NCBI GenBank assembly: GCA_001303545.1
Contig: LJUA01000002.1
Coordinates: forward strand, 1-53,467
DNA length: 53,467 nt
Origin: Dehalococcoidia bacterium SM23_28_2
GTDB lineage: Bacteria > Chloroflexota > Dehalococcoidia > SM23-28-2
Direction: 5' to 3'
Shown: positions 6,323 to 50,079 of the stretch, in pieces
Layout: every line of letters begins with the position of its first letter
Position numbering within the stretch: the first letter of the stretch is position 1
Program-made: the position numbers and the translations under genes
Notes under the pieces: model-generated
The model's input: the letters and a program-made list of their open reading frames with translations, nothing else
What the model was told of the DNA's origin: nothing
The model's database searches: none

Positions 6323-7072
6323 ATGCCTATCGTGCTGAAGGGGCCCGAAGAGATAGCCCTGATGCGGCAGGCGGGCCGGGCTGTGGCCGAGGTATTGGGC
6401 ATCCTGCGACAGGAGATTCGGCCGGGGCTGATGCTCAAGAGGCTGGACGAGGTTGTGCGACGGGAGTTCGCCAAAAGGAAGGTGGTTCCTACCTTCCTGG
6501 ACTATCAGGGCTATCCGGCGCGCGTCTGCGTCTCGGTGAACGATGAGATTGTGCATGGCATACCCAATAGCCGCATCCTTCAGGAGGGCGACATCGTGAG
6601 CCTCGACCTGGGAGCCACTCACAGAGGCTTCGTGGGCGATGCCGCCATCACTGTGGCCGTAGGGAGGATAAGCCCCGAGGCCGAGCGCCTTGTGCGGGTA
6701 ACCGAAGAGGCGCTGTGGGAAGGCATCAGAGCAGCGAAGGCCGGCGTTCGCCTGGGACAGATATCGGCGGCTATTCAGGCTCATGCCGAAGGGAACGGCT
6801 TCTCTGTCGTGCGGGAGTACGTGGGGCATGGCGTCGGTCGCAGCATGCACGAGGAACCTCAGGTGCCCAACTTCGGCCTGCCCGACCGGGGGCTGTTGCT
6901 CCAGAAGGGGATGACCCTGGCCCTGGAGCCGATGGTTACCGCCGGCGATTGGAAAACCGAGAAGGATCCCGACGGCTGGACCGTTCGCACAGCCGACGGT
7001 AGCCTTGCCGCGCATTTTGAGCACACGATAGCGATCATCGAGGGCGGAGCGGAGGTGCTGACGCTTCCTTGA
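6323..7072 (+). CDS. map: Type I methionine aminopeptidase
   Basis: 249 aa, ...CVSVNDEIVHGIP...GDIVSLDLGA...GHGVGRSMHEEP...EPM...EHT... Confidence 0.93.
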   Translation: MPIVLKGPEEIALMRQAGRAVAEVLGILRQEIRPGLMLKRLDEVVRREFAKRKVVPTFLDYQGYPARVCVSVNDEIVHGIPNSRILQEGDIVSLDLGATHRGFVGDAAITVAVGRISPEAERLVRVTEEALWEGIRAAKAGVRLGQISAAIQAHAEGNGFSVVREYVGHGVGRSMHEEPQVPNFGLPDRGLLLQKGMTLALEPMVTAGDWKTEKDPDGWTVRTADGSLAAHFEHTIAIIEGGAEVLTLP

Positions 7073-7904: not shown

Positions 7905-8300
7905 ATGGCTGAAAAGAAGGGCTCAGGTCGGGTACGGCGGCGGGAGCGCAAGAACATCCCCGTCGGTCGTGCCTACGTTCAGTCCACCTTCAATAACACG
8001 ATCATTACTCTCACCGATCCCAACGGCAATGTCATCGCCTGGGCCAGCGGGGGCACGGTGGGGTTCAAGGGCTCCCGCAAGAGCACTCCCTACGCCGCTC
8101 AGATAGCGGCCGATAGGGTAGCCAAGCGGGGAATGGAACACGGCCTGCGCCAGGTAGATGTCTACGTGAGAGGCCCGGGCAGCGGTCGGGAGGCAGCTAT
8201 TCGCTCCCTGCAGGGGGCGGGCATTCAGGTGATGAGCATCCGCGACGTAACCCCTATTCCCCACAACGGCTGTCGCCCACCCAAACGGCGGCGGGTGTAA
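7905..8300 (+). CDS. rpsK: 30S ribosomal protein S11
   Basis: ...[46 protein letters not shown]... Confidence 0.95.
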
Positions 8301-8339
8301 GCTGGGGATGTTGCGCTCTTAGCCAGTGAGGGAGAGCTA

Positions 8340-8966
8340 GTGGCACGCTATAGAGGACCCGCCTGCCGAATATGTCGGCGCCTGGCCGAAAAGCTCTATC
8401 TTAAAGGGGAGAAGTGTTACTCTCCCAAGTGCCCCTTTGAGCGTCGGCCGTACGCTCCCGGGCAGCGCTCCATGCGCCGCCGCAAAGTATCCGACCGCGG
8501 CCTTCAGCTGCGGGAGAAGCAGAAGGGGCGCTCCACCTACGGGCTGCTGGAGCGCCAGTTCCGCCGCTACTACAGGGAGGCGGTGCGACGCAAGGGGATC
8601 ACCGGCGAGGATCTGCTGCGTATTCTCGAGATGCGCCTGGACAACGTCGTCTATCGTCTGGGCTTCGCCGATTCGCGCAACCAGGCGCGCCAGTTGGTGC
8701 GCCATGGACACATCAGCCTGAATGGCCGAAAGGCCGATATCCCCTCTCACGTGATCAAAGTGAACGATGTCATCGGTTGGACGGCGAGAGGGCAGGCGAG
8801 CGAGATCTTCAAGATAGTCAAAGAGCAGGTGGCTGAGCGGTCCGTCCCCTCGTGGCTGAACCTGGATGCCGAACAGATGACGGGGCGGGTACTATCGCCG
8901 CCGCCTATGGAAGACATTGGGGCCAAATTCGACCCGGCCACTATTGTTGAGTTCTACTCTCGTTAG
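8340..8966 (+). CDS. rpsD: 30S ribosomal protein S4
   Basis: GTG start, MARYRGPACRICRRLAEKLYLKGEKCYSPKCPFERR..., 208 aa. Confidence 0.94.
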   Translation: MARYRGPACRICRRLAEKLYLKGEKCYSPKCPFERRPYAPGQRSMRRRKVSDRGLQLREKQKGRSTYGLLERQFRRYYREAVRRKGITGEDLLRILEMRLDNVVYRLGFADSRNQARQLVRHGHISLNGRKADIPSHVIKVNDVIGWTARGQASEIFKIVKEQVAERSVPSWLNLDAEQMTGRVLSPPPMEDIGAKFDPATIVEFYSR

Positions 8967-21015: not shown

Positions 21016-21144
21016 CTCTCATCTTTCCCTTCGGTGCAGCCGAAGGGTCGGACTTGGCACCGTATCCAGCTATAGCGAATCGCTCTGGCGCGGACCGGTT
21101 GCCGGGTTTCCTCGGGCCGTTCCCTCCACCACTCGCGATAAGAG
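21016..21144 (-). promoter_or_regulatory. SAM-I (S-box) riboswitch aptamer
   Basis: The minus strand reads CTCTTATCGCGAGTGGTGGAGGGAACGGCCCGAGGAAACCCGGCAACCGG...CGGTGCCAAGTCCGACC...GAAGGGAAAGATGAGAG. This matches the S-box core (CUCUUAUC..GAG.GGUGGAGGGA..GGCCC..GAA.CCCGGCAACC...GGUGCCAA.UCC...AGAUGAGAG), including the P1 halves. Confidence 0.9.
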
Positions 21145-25263: not shown

Positions 25264-25360
25264 GGGAGTGGATGGGCCCCGGTGGGCCTCTCGGTCTTCA
25301 AAACCGATGCGGGGCGGTAGGACCGTCCCGGGTGGGTTCGACTCCCATGCACTCCCGCCA
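25264..25360 (+). tRNA. selC: tRNA-Sec (anticodon UCA), 97 nt including an encoded CCA
   Basis: GGGAGTGGATGGGCCCCGGTGGGCCTCTCGGTCTTCAAAACCGATGCGGGGCGGTAGGACCGTCCCGGGTGGGTTCGACTCCCATGCACTCCCGCCA. Acceptor GGGAGTG pairs with CACTCCC. The D-stem has 6 bp (GGGCCC/GGGCCT) with a 4-nt loop. The anticodon arm is TCGGT-CTTCAAA-ACCGA. The long variable arm has 8 bp (GGGGCGGT/ACCGTCCC). The T-loop is GGTTCGACTCC. Confidence 0.9.
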
Positions 25361-35898: not shown

Positions 35899-36108
35899 CT
35901 ATAGCCGCAGCTTGCCGTGCGATGGCTGCCTTCGACGCTGGCGATGAGGTGCACCCTCTTCGGCCCGAAGCTCTTCGGCAGCCATAGCTCCGAACTCATG
36001 GACGTAGCCACAGCAGAGGCAAGAACTGTACGAACCGTACCAGTCCTCTTCCATGATCATGGAGCCACGACAGCGGGGACAGACTCTGGGAGGCGCAGAC
36101 TGCACCAC
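35899..36108 (-). CDS. Small C4 zinc-ribbon protein (69 aa), function unknown
   Basis: GTG start after GGGAAGGGGG. Sequence is VQSAPPRVCPRCRGSMIMEEDWYGSYSSCLCCGYVHEF..., with a basic tail RQRRRQPSHGKLRL. Confidence 0.55.
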   Translation of the reverse strand: MVQSAPPRVCPRCRGSMIMEEDWYGSYSSCLCCGYVHEFGAMAAEELRAEEGAPHRQRRRQPSHGKLRL

Positions 36109-36185: not shown

Positions 36186-36358
36186 AAAAAAAGGCCTTTT
36201 GCCAGTAACCGCCGGCAAGGCCTTTCGTGCGCCTCCGAGGTTAGTTGACGGATTCGGGTTGAAAGGCTAACCCTACCCCGACGCTGTCGGGGATTCACCC
36301 CAGTATTTGGTCCCCCGTGTCGCCTGTGGCGACTTCGGCGCGGGCGATCGTGACTTCA
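36186..36358 (-). ncRNA. Candidate structured leader or small RNA of about 170 nt, class unknown, ending in an intrinsic terminator
   Basis: The minus strand carries consecutive hairpins GTCGCC-acag-GCGAC, CCCCGAC-agc-GTCGGGG and GGGTT-agcctttca-AACCC. A terminator GGCCTTGCC-ggcggttact-GGCAAAAGGCC follows, with TTTTTTT at 36186-36222. Confidence 0.45.
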
Positions 36359-36364
36359 ATCACA

Positions 36365-36393
36365 ATATTATCGCAATTGCAAAAACCTGTCAA
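36365..36393 (-). promoter_or_regulatory. Near-consensus sigma-70 promoter driving the structured RNA
   Basis: The minus strand has TTGACA (36393-36388), a 17-nt spacer and TAATAT (36370-36365). Confidence 0.6.
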
Positions 36394-36536
36394 GCAGATG
36401 CAAATAATCGGCTGTTGGCGGCCTTTGTGCGCCTATGGGCTGACCCTTGACTGAGCAAGGAGCGGATGATAACTTCAGCCCACCGATAACATCCTGGCGA
36501 CAGTCGGGCCCAGGCGCTAGGGGAGCAAGGCCAGCC

Positions 36537-37496
36537 GTGCAGCATTACATCGTCCGTCGCTCTCTTCTCAACGTCCTGGTGATCTTCATGGTCATCACCA
36601 TGGTCTTCCTTGCTCTGCGGGTGACGCCGGGCGACTTCGCCGTGCGTCAGGCGGGGGCCCAGATCCCCGACCGTTCAGCGGAAGAGGCGGAAGATATCGT
36701 CCGTCACGACCTGGGCCTGGATAAGCCCATGCCCAAGCAGTACTGGGACTTCGTGAGCGGTCTCTTTCGGGGGGATCTGGGCGACTCCTTCGTCAGCGGG
36801 CAGCCTGTCATGGTAGAGCTGAGGGAGCGATTGGCTCCCTCGATTGAGCTGGCGATCCTCCAGGTGGCGGTGGCAGTGCTGGTAGCTGTGCCCATAGGCA
36901 TTATCTCCGCCGTTCGGCAGGATACGTGGCTGGACTACGCTCTTCGCTTGTTCGCCATCTTCTGGCTGGCCGTACCGTCCTTCTTTGTGGGGGTGTTGCT
37001 CCTCTACGGTTTGGCCCGTTGGGCTCACTGGAGTCCGCCCATCACCAACTACAAGGGCTTCTTTGATGATCCTTTTCTGAACGTGCAGGCCATGGTTCTC
37101 CCAGCCGTAGCGGGGGGGCTAGCCATCGGCGCTATAATAATGCGGTTCTTGCGTTCGCAGATGCTGGAGGTGCTCCGTCAGGACTACATACGTACCGCTT
37201 GGGCGAAAGGCCTGCGGGAGCGAGTGGTAATTATGAGGCATGCCCTCAAGAATGCTCTTATTCCTGTTATTACCGTTATCTCCCTCCTCCTCGCCACCAT
37301 CGCCAGCGCCAATGTAGTCCTGGAGACCCTCTTTCAGCTGCCGGGCATTGGCTTCTACGTGGTCAATGCCATTCAGCAGTACGACTATCCGGTGGTCCAG
37401 GGAGTAGTGCTTCTGGTGGCCGCAGGTCTGGTGTTTGTCAACCTGCTGGTGGATGTCGCCTACGCCTGGCTGGACCCCCGGATTCGCTACGGCTAG
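36537..37496 (+). CDS. ABC transporter permease, peptide/nickel (DppB/OppB) family
   Basis: GTG 36537 follows GGGGAG, giving VQHYIVRRSLLNVLVIFMVITMVFLALRVTPGDF...RQDYIRTAWAKGLRERVVIMRHALKNALIPVITV.... The track ORF starts at 36447. Confidence 0.85.
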   Translation: MQHYIVRRSLLNVLVIFMVITMVFLALRVTPGDFAVRQAGAQIPDRSAEEAEDIVRHDLGLDKPMPKQYWDFVSGLFRGDLGDSFVSGQPVMVELRERLAPSIELAILQVAVAVLVAVPIGIISAVRQDTWLDYALRLFAIFWLAVPSFFVGVLLLYGLARWAHWSPPITNYKGFFDDPFLNVQAMVLPAVAGGLAIGAIIMRFLRSQMLEVLRQDYIRTAWAKGLRERVVIMRHALKNALIPVITVISLLLATIASANVVLETLFQLPGIGFYVVNAIQQYDYPVVQGVVLLVAAGLVFVNLLVDVAYAWLDPRIRYG

Positions 37497-37547
37497 CAGT
37501 CCGCTGAAAGGAGGTGTCCCCTGCTGGCGGGACACGAAGGGGCCGAG

Positions 37548-38483
37548 GTGGAGGTCCTCGTTGCCGCGGCGGCGGAGGTTGCTCCGCCGCGACGGCTCGG
37601 CTGGCTTTTCCTCGTCGGGCGCTTCATCCGGCGCAAGCCTCTGGGCGCCTTTGGGGTGGCGGTCGTCTTGCTGATGGCAGCGCTCGCCGCCGGTGCGCCC
37701 TGGCTCTCTCGGTACGATGCTGAGGAGACATTTCGGGTTGCCAACCCCAGCTATGTGCCTGGTTCGATGCAGCCGGCGGAGAGGTTGGACAGCCGCTCGG
37801 GCCCCAGCTTGAAGCACTGGTTTGGCACCGACCAGTTCGGCCGTGACAACTACTCGCGAGTGGTCTGGGGCGCCCGCCGCTCCCTGGGAGTGGGGCTGGG
37901 CGCGCTGCTGTTCGCCATCATCTTCGGCACAACCATTGGCATCGTCTCCGCCTACTTCCGCGGCTGGTTCGACATGCTCGTCCAGCGGGTCATGGACTCT
38001 ATCCAGGCCTTTCCTGCCATCCTGATCCTGCTGCTGCTGGTGAGCCTCACCGAGCGGAATCTGATCACGCTGACCATGGGCTTGGGCTTCGTGGTCATCA
38101 CCGGCGCCCAGCGTATTGTGCGCAGCGCCGTCCTTTCCGCTCGCGAGGACCCGCACGTGGAGGCAGCCAGGGCCATCGGCTGCTCTCCCTTCCGCCTGAT
38201 GGCTGTGCACATCCTGCCCAATGTGGCGGCGCCGATAATCATCATCTTCTCTATCGGCATTGCCGGTGTTATCCTGGCGGAGGCCGCTCTGGCCTTCCTG
38301 GGCCTGGCGCCTATCGAGCCGCCGTCTTGGGGCATGATGCTGGACGAAGGGCGGCGATACATGACCAGTCAGCCCTCGACCATGCTTGCCGGCGGAGCGG
38401 CGATAACCCTGACGGTGATGGGCTTCAACCTGGCGGGGGATGCCCTGCGCGATATCCTTGACCCTCGCATTCGCCTTACCTAG
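37548..38483 (+). CDS. ABC transporter permease, peptide/nickel (DppC/OppC) family
   Basis: 311 aa, ...HWFGTDQFGRDNYSRVVWGARRSL...HVEAARAIGCSPFRLMAVHILPNVAAPIII... Confidence 0.85.
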   Translation: MEVLVAAAAEVAPPRRLGWLFLVGRFIRRKPLGAFGVAVVLLMAALAAGAPWLSRYDAEETFRVANPSYVPGSMQPAERLDSRSGPSLKHWFGTDQFGRDNYSRVVWGARRSLGVGLGALLFAIIFGTTIGIVSAYFRGWFDMLVQRVMDSIQAFPAILILLLLVSLTERNLITLTMGLGFVVITGAQRIVRSAVLSAREDPHVEAARAIGCSPFRLMAVHILPNVAAPIIIIFSIGIAGVILAEAALAFLGLAPIEPPSWGMMLDEGRRYMTSQPSTMLAGGAAITLTVMGFNLAGDALRDILDPRIRLT

Positions 38484-38510
38484 AAGGCTTCTGGATAGGC
38501 GAAAGGAGGT

Positions 38511-40334
38511 GTGACCGTGGCCGACTCGGACTATTGGCGGCGCTTCTGGACTCGGCGGATGTCGCGACGGCGGGTGCTGCGAGCGGCTGCCCTGGGCGGT
38601 GCCGGTCTTGCGGCGGCCGCCGTCGTCGGCTGCGGGCAGGAGGAAAAGGAAGCCACGCCAACGGCGCTGGCCAGTCCAACCCCTCCCGCTACTCCCACGC
38701 CCTATGTCTACGAGCCCGCGGCCTATCGCGGCGGCACCCTCCACCTGCCGGGCTTAGAAGCCTTTGGGGCCGATACCTTGGACCCCCACCATACCGAGTT
38801 CGGGCCGGTCTTCAGTTCGCATTCTGCGGTTTTCAGCAAGGTTCTGAGGTACGAAGACATCGAGCGGGGGGTCATCGTTCCTGACCTGGCAGAGAGCTGG
38901 GAGACGCCCGACCCCGACGGACTGACTTACATCATCCGCCTGAGGTCGGGGGTGCGCTTTCAGCAGCCGAGCACCGTCCTGGGAGGCTCGCCCACCGCCG
39001 AGGAGAAGGCTGTGGGCGGCCGCGAGCTTACGGCGGAGGATGTGAAGTACAGCTTTGAGCGACAGATGAACGAGGAGAGCCCCCGGCGGGCCCTCTTCAA
39101 GCACGCCCATCACTATGAAACCATCGATACCATAGAGGTGGTGGACCCACTCACCCTCAAGATCCGCACCAAGCGGCCTACGGCTCCCTTCCTCCACTTC
39201 CTGGCCGATAGCAACGCCTTCATCATCGCCAAGGAGCTGGTGGACGACACCGACCAGATGAACCAGCCGGAGGCGATGCTGGGCACCGGCCCCTTTATGT
39301 GGGACGAGCTGAAGCCGCTGGTGAAGTCGTCCTTTGTCAGGAACCCTGACTGGTTCGGCTGGGACGAGCCGGAGCTTGGCAGGCCCTACATCGATGGCTA
39401 CCAGTCTCATTTCATCTATGACGATGCCGCCATTGAGGCCGTCTTTCGCACCAAGAAGCTGGACGTGGCCTTTCAGGTGAACAACCCCGAGTGGGTGACC
39501 AAGCTCAGGGAGGACGAACCTGACCTGATCAGCTACGATATGGGCTTTGCGGCCTGGGTCAAGGCTACCTTCATGGTAGACCAGCCGCCCTACAATGACA
39601 TCAGGCTGCGGCGGGCGATCCACCTGGCCAGCGACCGGCAGCAGATGCTGGACGCCTTCTGGCAGGGCTACGGCAAGATGCAGGGGCCCGTAGGCTGGGT
39701 CCTCAAGCAGTGGGCCCTGCCGCAGGAGGAGCTGCTCAAGAAGCCCGGCTATCGGCTGAGCAAGGAGGAGCGGGAGGAGGACGAGCAGGAGGCCCGTCGA
39801 CTGTACGAAGCGGCGGGAAGCCCCGACCTAAAGATCACCTTCGCCGATAACCCGCCCTACATCCCTCAGTTCGCTCCCCAGTACAAGCGACAGCTAGAGA
39901 AGGTCCTGGGGGCCAAGGTGGAATACGACATATGGACCTACGCTCAGCTTGCGGAAGGTGGGCTCCGGGGCACCGTCCCCTTTGCCTTCGCCTATGACAA
40001 CGGCTGGATCGACCTGGACGACTGGCTCTATCCGTACTTCCACACCGGCGGACCCAAGAATTCGTTCCACCTGTCGGATCTCACGCTGGACAGTATGCTG
40101 GAGGCCCAGAGGGAGGAGTTCGACTTCGAGGAGCGACAGCGGCTTGGCTATGAGATCCAGCACTACCTGCTGGACAACGTTCTCGCTCGTCTGGACTTCG
40201 TTTCCGCTATCTGGCTATGGGTGGCCTGGCCTTACTACCGGAATTTCCGGCCGACGCCCTTCTTCGGGAACTCTTTCCTGATGGCCAACGCCTGGCTCGA
40301 CCAGTCGAATTCCGTTTGGGGAAGCAGGCCGTAA
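38511..40334 (+). CDS. ABC transporter substrate-binding protein (family 5, peptide/nickel type), a Tat-signal lipoprotein
   Basis: 607 aa. The N-terminus ...MSRRRVLRAAALGGAGLAAAAVVGCGQEEK has a twin-arginine motif and a lipobox Cys. Confidence 0.85.
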   Translation: MTVADSDYWRRFWTRRMSRRRVLRAAALGGAGLAAAAVVGCGQEEKEATPTALASPTPPATPTPYVYEPAAYRGGTLHLPGLEAFGADTLDPHHTEFGPVFSSHSAVFSKVLRYEDIERGVIVPDLAESWETPDPDGLTYIIRLRSGVRFQQPSTVLGGSPTAEEKAVGGRELTAEDVKYSFERQMNEESPRRALFKHAHHYETIDTIEVVDPLTLKIRTKRPTAPFLHFLADSNAFIIAKELVDDTDQMNQPEAMLGTGPFMWDELKPLVKSSFVRNPDWFGWDEPELGRPYIDGYQSHFIYDDAAIEAVFRTKKLDVAFQVNNPEWVTKLREDEPDLISYDMGFAAWVKATFMVDQPPYNDIRLRRAIHLASDRQQMLDAFWQGYGKMQGPVGWVLKQWALPQEELLKKPGYRLSKEEREEDEQEARRLYEAAGSPDLKITFADNPPYIPQFAPQYKRQLEKVLGAKVEYDIWTYAQLAEGGLRGTVPFAFAYDNGWIDLDDWLYPYFHTGGPKNSFHLSDLTLDSMLEAQREEFDFEERQRLGYEIQHYLLDNVLARLDFVSAIWLWVAWPYYRNFRPTPFFGNSFLMANAWLDQSNSVWGSRP

Positions 40335-48498: not shown

Positions 48499-48542
48499 CA
48501 TTTGTTCGCCTGCCTGCTAACCTGGAAGTGCCAATCGAATAA

Positions 48543-50079
<1,537 letters not shown>

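Follow-up and report, generated by a model that had tools for sequence, protein, structure and literature searches.

A c-di-AMP riboswitch upstream from a zinc-ribbon mini-protein gene in Chloroflexota, with a terminator layout that may make it an ON switch

INTRODUCTION

The messenger c-di-AMP is essential in many bacteria, in which it controls potassium and osmolyte balance. The riboswitch class that senses it has, to our knowledge, been described only as turning off genes for transporters and cell-wall enzymes. In the window analyzed here (the whole stretch of 53,467 nucleotides from Dehalococcoidia bacterium SM23_28_2), a promoter, a multi-hairpin RNA, and an intrinsic terminator precede a small zinc-ribbon gene on the minus strand, and an original prediction, made by eye, left the RNA as an unassigned riboswitch or small RNA. 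The locus thus raises the questions of which ligand the RNA senses, in which direction it controls the gene behind it, and what the product of that gene may do.

RESULTS

Identity of the RNA

An Rfam scan of the whole window, a check that the original prediction had proposed, gave a full-length match to the c-di-AMP (ydaO/yuaA) riboswitch family RF00379 at 36350-36217 on the minus strand (83.6 bits, with a gathering cutoff of 38 bits; E = 4.7e-18; all 134 model positions). The RNA is a member of this known class, and the description "unassigned" was wrong; the prediction had named a confident hit to a known family as the outcome that would overturn it, and RF00379 is such a hit. Its exclusion of known families had taken in c-di-GMP and passed over c-di-AMP, and the segment said to recall ykkC and B12 elements loosely is the conserved c-di-AMP core. 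The three hairpins it described (GUCGCC/GGCGAC, CCCCGAC/GUCGGGG, and GGGUU/AACCC) are all present on the minus strand.

The nested helices of RF00379 (outer P1, two three-way junctions, and hairpins) are all present and kept by compensatory change. Across 53 related leaders, 90.1% of cells of the family's 39 pairs were paired, compared with 42 to 55% in slid controls; 19 pairs had changed on both sides, and the covariation score was reached by none of 500 shuffles, so that the conservation looked for by the original prediction is found. The pseudoknot helix (helix 11) was paired in 97.2% of cells. Its 5' strand, GCCUUUC (36267-36261), is loop sequence of the GGGU(U)/(A)ACCC hairpin, and its 3' strand, GAAAGGC (36226-36220), is a purine-rich tail, both on the minus strand. 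A new riboswitch or small-RNA class had nothing behind it beyond a failed match by eye; set against a full-length match scoring over double the gathering cutoff and the conservation of all RF00379 helices and the pseudoknot among relatives, it has virtually no chance of being correct, and we dropped it as refuted.

The same genome (1.46 Mb, 74% complete) carries five c-di-AMP riboswitches. It also encodes a diadenylate cyclase (DAC-domain gene, 150 bits), which lends indirect support to the prediction that the window RNA binds c-di-AMP. Other Rfam matches above the gathering score in the window were a SAM-I riboswitch at 21016-21144 (minus strand, 76.2 bits), a TPP riboswitch at 48540-48654 (plus strand, 66.7 bits), and a tRNA-Sec at 25264-25356 (plus strand, 81.7 bits).

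Layout of the locus

The sigma-70-type promoter that had been predicted is present on the minus strand at 36393-36365, where TTGACA (36393-36388) and TAATAT (36370-36365) are separated by 17 nt (10 of 12 matches), and transcription is expected to start near 36360-36356. The 1.5-kb region holds three promoter-like sites, against 0.3 expected from shuffles; near-consensus promoters also precede the other four c-di-AMP leaders of the genome. The predicted terminator is likewise found at 36222-36186 (minus strand): an 11-bp, G+C-rich hairpin with an AA bulge (GGCCUUGCCGG...CUGGCAAAAGGCC, 36222-36193) stands directly before a U7 run (36192-36186), as expected of an intrinsic terminator, and folds at -16.3 kcal/mol for the GC stem and at -21.6 kcal/mol with its A:U extension (z = -3.6). 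It escaped a simple terminator scan on account of its 2-nt bulge.

A Shine-Dalgarno (SD)-like sequence, GGGAAGGGGG, follows at 36126-36117, where relatives have GGAGG-type sites, and precedes the C4 zinc-ribbon open reading frame (ORF) at 36108-35899 (minus strand). Since relatives have an ATG start codon where this ORF has its second GTG (36105), the product is more likely a 68-residue protein (MQSAPPR...) than the 69-residue one read from the GTG at 36108. The 15-bp terminator that had been placed behind the ORF stands as a hairpin at 35867-35827 (minus strand; 18 bp, 15 of them perfect Watson-Crick; -32.1 kcal/mol, z = -9.5), but its stem is not followed by the U run of a textbook intrinsic terminator. 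The transcript probably has its 3' end at this hairpin, which would also part the zinc-ribbon gene from a marR-RND unit, for which the promoter scan gave a promoter-like site at 35779-35750; with both elements lying before marR-RND, we read the zinc-ribbon gene as monocistronic here.

On the other side, the intergenic region that holds the riboswitch promoter also borders a divergent Dpp/Opp-type ABC unit (36447-40334, plus strand) coding for two permeases and a binding protein. At 43 of 80 loci a homologous permease is found upstream, its identity as low as about 50%, and this unit may be functionally linked to the mini-protein. An extra hairpin (CCCGAGGC...GCCUCUGGG, at about 36180-36138 on the minus strand) sits between terminator and SD sequence. 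It is limited to the window's close clade (L006 to L014, L056, and L057), in which the base of the stem is kept and the inner part varies; in the window, the terminator-to-SD region (36185-36095) is no more stable when folded than its shuffled versions (z = 0.30).

Linkage of riboswitch and gene

The zinc-ribbon gene, here called type 1, lies almost always behind this riboswitch in Chloroflexota. Among the 80 best loci encoding a relative, 76 have a c-di-AMP aptamer just upstream on the same strand, and an Rfam check of sampled loci confirmed 16 of 16 positives and found the family in none of four negatives. An independent, genome-based sample gave the type-1 gene in all 31 related genomes (14 genera, six families, one order), with an RF00379 match 60 to 315 nt upstream on the same strand in all 30 that have a full-length assembled copy. 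The four loci without an upstream riboswitch are L060, L065, L077, and L079; genome G025, which has a riboswitch-linked copy, also carries a second type-1 copy without one (C2:1491649-1491852).

This linkage bears on whether the promoter-aptamer-terminator unit is mainly a stand-alone RNA of about 170 nt (a c-di-AMP-binding small RNA or sponge), the zinc-ribbon gene being expressed independently. Such an RNA would agree with the strong promoter and the terminator that the unit possesses, and with the roughly 75 to 85 nt, including a further hairpin, that lie between terminator and ORF in the window's clade. However, most relatives have only about 25 to 35 nt from the U-tract to the start codon, and the promoter scan of the window found no promoter-like site between terminator and ORF; because of these two features, and with the RNA tied to the gene as it is, we consider an independent RNA very improbable. 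The part of the original prediction that read the architecture as a ligand-sensing leader, with its promoter and an intrinsic terminator gating the zinc-ribbon gene, therefore holds up, while its option of an independent small RNA fares poorly.

The type-1 mini-protein

The type-1 ORF is a real gene under strong purifying selection: among 80 homologues, substitutions at codon positions 1, 2, and 3 numbered 617, 494, and 1,721, and the C-terminal 14 residues, RQRRRQPSHGKLRL, showed 583 synonymous codon differences and not one nonsynonymous difference. The alignment gives a C4 ribbon, CP(R)C-x8-DWYG-x-Y-x2-C-x2-CGY (CPRC...CLCC in the window protein), followed by this invariant basic C terminus. 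A word-based search returned 116 clusters of homologues, and a full HMM search returned 100 representatives at E <= 1e-10 and 1,935 at E <= 0.001; the named sources are all Chloroflexota metagenome-assembled genomes (MAGs) (Dehalococcoidia, Tepidiformales, and others), and the protein of locus L006 is 99% identical to that of the window.

The assignment as a zinc ribbon comes from the cysteine pattern and the predicted fold. For the window protein and its relatives, Pfam and NCBIfam gave only subthreshold, generic zinc-ribbon matches, and the cutoffs of the TFIIB, RPB9, and Lar families (PF08271, PF02150, and PF14354) were not reached, the best being Lar at 22.1 against 28.6 bits. The AlphaFold model (pLDDT 74) predicts a three-stranded C4 ribbon at about residues 9 to 41, a short helix, and a low-confidence tail (pLDDT 59 to 65). 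A Foldseek search with this model returned generic ribbons only (E >= 0.08), and a PDB profile search with the mini-protein gave no significant match. The best structural matches, none of them significant, were the ribbons of TFIIB, RPB9, and RPC10, Lar, and Thermus ZifS (PDB 8yoz), which resemble the predicted C4 ribbon of the mini-protein but lack its tail; a literature search for Thermus ZifS/TTHA0897 found no paper. A resemblance of the tail to the N terminus of ribosomal protein bL34 (QPS...HG) was dropped as unconvincing, as it needs a 7-residue gap. Our best guess is that the mini-protein is a small factor that binds nucleic acid or else the machinery of transcription or translation.

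The ribbon with a tail like that of type 1 also ends proteins of 190 to 740 residues (P0124, P0127, P0128, P0132, P0175, P0176, P0189, and others), which have one to three N-terminal "NPW..L..E.T.L...KE.A" modules, similar by eye to HTH or sigma-70 region 4 domains. Against Pfam, these modules reached E values of 0.03 to 0.045 in 2 of 10 proteins, and an HMM search of the window's genome with them gave nothing significant. Two fusion genes that could be located (L115 and L116) lie on MAG contigs of 42% GC and have no riboswitch.

Overlap of terminator and pseudoknot

The terminator stem begins at 36222, within the pseudoknot tail, whose GGC forms the terminator base and whose A residues can pair with the first U residues of the U-tract. 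With the tail locked in the pseudoknot, the window hairpin drops from -16.3 to -9.4 kcal/mol, and 6 unpaired nt come to lie between stem and U-tract. A terminator was called in 52 of 74 relatives, the remaining 22 having none by the criteria used, some of them through missed calls; in 50 of the 52, the tail overlaps the GC base of the terminator by at least 2 nt, mostly 2 to 3. Among 46 distinct haplotypes, the pseudoknot loop and the terminator 3' strand compete in nearly all for the same 6 to 7 nt of the tail (range, 3 to 8), and for both helices (loop with tail and tail with terminator) matched partners beat shuffled ones in 2,000 of 2,000 permutations, a figure that overstates independence, as the sequences are related.

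When the leader was folded length by length, in a simulation of transcription, the only upstream partner of the tail was the pseudoknot loop (p = 0.9 to 0.99), and the tail moved from this loop to the terminator once the terminator 3' strand had been made. Because the tail has this one upstream partner and then switches to the terminator, the pseudoknot is itself the antiterminator, and ligand binding should therefore favor read-through. The layout changes at the far end of the family: the distant type-1 loci L063 to L084 keep the aptamer and a GGAAGG tail, many have no U-tract after the following hairpin, and a second hairpin (for example, UUCGAGG...CCUCGAA) stands ahead of a distant SD sequence. 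These leaders probably use a different expression platform, and since the more distant type-1 leaders truly lack a U-tract, the proposed ON mechanism is not uniform across the family.

OFF-type leaders as an internal control

The same RNA could instead be a conventional OFF switch, in which c-di-AMP would promote termination and keep the zinc-ribbon gene repressed, like the switches of Bacillus kimA, ktrAB, and kdpFABC. All characterized members of the class are OFF switches, and the 7-bp pseudoknot duplex by itself (-8.9 kcal/mol) is less stable than the terminator (-16 to -21 kcal/mol), which might therefore form in any ligand state. For such a switch, however, we found no antiterminator that the free aptamer could use, the pseudoknot loop being the sole upstream partner of the tail, and the pseudoknot and the terminator base share nucleotides in nearly all of the 46 haplotypes.

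A comparison within the same and related genomes speaks to this directly. We took 26 c-di-AMP leaders that do not precede a type-1 gene, together with 7 type-1 leaders in the same sample. In 20 of the 26, the terminator starts 4 to 26 nt after the tail without overlapping it, and a separate antiterminator of 5 to 9 bp has a 5' strand that overlaps the tail (GAGGCAUA/UAUGCCUC or GAGAGGCUA/UAGCCUCUC), which is the classic OFF layout. The other six comprise one separate terminator without a called antiterminator, one miscalled long hairpin, and four leaders without a called terminator. None of the 26 shares its pseudoknot tail with a terminator, whereas tail and terminator overlap directly in all 7 type-1 leaders. 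In the folding series of an OFF leader from the window's genome, an early antiterminator is later replaced by the terminator. The window and these OFF-type leaders (C6:7013-7150, C85:8286-8428, and C106:13874-14028 in its own genome; L086 to L113 in relatives) have in common the RNA family, the style of promoter, the pseudoknot, and an intrinsic terminator; the OFF-type leaders differ in that the terminator lies 4 to 26 nt beyond the tail and that most have a separate antiterminator overlapping the tail. As this obvious separate antiterminator of the same-genome OFF-type leaders is absent from type-1 leaders, we regard OFF control of the type-1 gene as unlikely, though a serious alternative.

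The OFF-type leaders precede genes for a radical-SAM enzyme and a VTT/DedA-type membrane protein and, in relatives, also a zinc-ribbon paralogue. On the plus strand of contig C85, riboswitch-gene units stand in tandem, with the leader at 6680-6810, the layout of which could not be parsed, preceding a class-III aminotransferase and that at 8286-8428 preceding a radical-SAM enzyme, putatively lysine-2,3-aminomutase-like; the tandem could be a compatible-solute pathway under c-di-AMP control.

The type-2 paralogue

The paralogue, here called type 2, is a protein of about 91 residues encoded 3' of many OFF-type leaders in relatives (L087, L090, L091, L094, L095, L097, and L098). It has the ribbon CPHC-x8-DMWG-x-FYAC-x2-CGYE (CPHC..DMWGPFYACEECGYE), which is homologous to the type-1 ribbon (hhalign probability, 95%; E = 3e-8), and a different tail (...WQASGAVPGLP), so that the two mini-proteins share the ribbon and differ in their tails. 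Among the 31 genomes, 12 of about 21 type-2-like matches lie directly behind RF00379, and in nine genomes type 1 and type 2 each have a riboswitch-linked unit. In the window's own genome, type 2 is present once (C82:13392-13661, minus strand; equivalent to L119:593-862), and no riboswitch or other Rfam match was found upstream from this copy.

DISCUSSION

Our results identify the leader as a c-di-AMP riboswitch and point, with slightly better than even confidence, to an RF00379 element that is transcribed from its own sigma-70 promoter, governs terminator read-through into a monocistronic gene for a 68-residue zinc-ribbon protein, and is wired as an ON switch. Binding of c-di-AMP to the aptamer would let the pseudoknot lock the tail GAAAGGC at 36226-36220, the proposed switching sequence; the terminator would thereby lose its base next to the U-tract, and the weakened hairpin would allow RNA polymerase to read through and the mini-protein to be made. 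Without c-di-AMP, the terminator would form. The argument is that ligand binding should block termination because the 3' strand of the aptamer pseudoknot is the 5' base of the terminator. It is architectural and not kinetic, since nested-only folding cannot model pseudoknot and ligand together, and the fact that the overlap relevant at termination amounts to only 2 to 3 G-C pairs counts against it. According to a review, the c-di-AMP class belongs with riboswitches whose expression platform is recruited by the aptamer once ligand is bound.

The position of type 2 behind OFF-type switches in relatives suggests reciprocal control, in which c-di-AMP, if the leaders are wired as we propose, would raise type 1 and lower type 2, and the type-1 mini-protein may work against this paralogue. 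We offer, more tentatively than the ON wiring itself and at somewhat below even confidence, the idea that a natural ON riboswitch, together with OFF riboswitches before the paralogue, lets c-di-AMP, in this order of Chloroflexota, exchange the one mini-protein for the other on a shared target, which might be RNA polymerase, the ribosome, or a transporter. The invariant tail, the presence of the gene in 31 of 31 genomes, and the riboswitch in 30 of 30 point to an unstudied output of c-di-AMP signaling in Chloroflexota, possibly a pair of antagonistic mini-proteins. An ON-type member, if confirmed, would mean that a shift of the terminator onto the pseudoknot strand is enough to reverse the control exerted by one and the same aptamer, and it would provide a ready-made c-di-AMP-inducible genetic part. 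Searches of the literature available to us found no ON-type c-di-AMP riboswitch and no zinc-ribbon cargo.

Several known systems resemble this leader in part. Like the ydaO/yuaA motif leaders, it has its own promoter, an intrinsic terminator, and a host that encodes a diadenylate cyclase, and it shares with the Bacillus subtilis ydaO/kimA and Bacillus thuringiensis kdpFABC leaders the aptamer, its helices, the pseudoknot between loop and 3' tail, and the conserved core nucleotides. The cargo differs: known members of the class are described as controlling K+, osmolyte, and amino-acid transporters and cell-wall enzymes, whereas the window's is a 68-residue zinc-ribbon protein without a curated family. 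The experimentally characterized c-di-AMP riboswitches, those of Bacillus included, are described as OFF switches (PMC6488665; PMC9960051); in the window, by contrast, the 5' base of the terminator is the 3' strand of the pseudoknot and a separate antiterminator is absent, an arrangement that predicts activation by c-di-AMP. A further parallel is the "interdomain docking" group of c-di-AMP riboswitches, which act on translation by docking of the pseudoknot to the ribosome-binding site (PMC10907184). There, as proposed here, the ligand-bound aptamer captures a purine-rich 3' strand of the expression platform; the captured strand is the ribosome-binding site in the translational group and the left arm of the terminator in the window, so that capture should turn expression on and not off.
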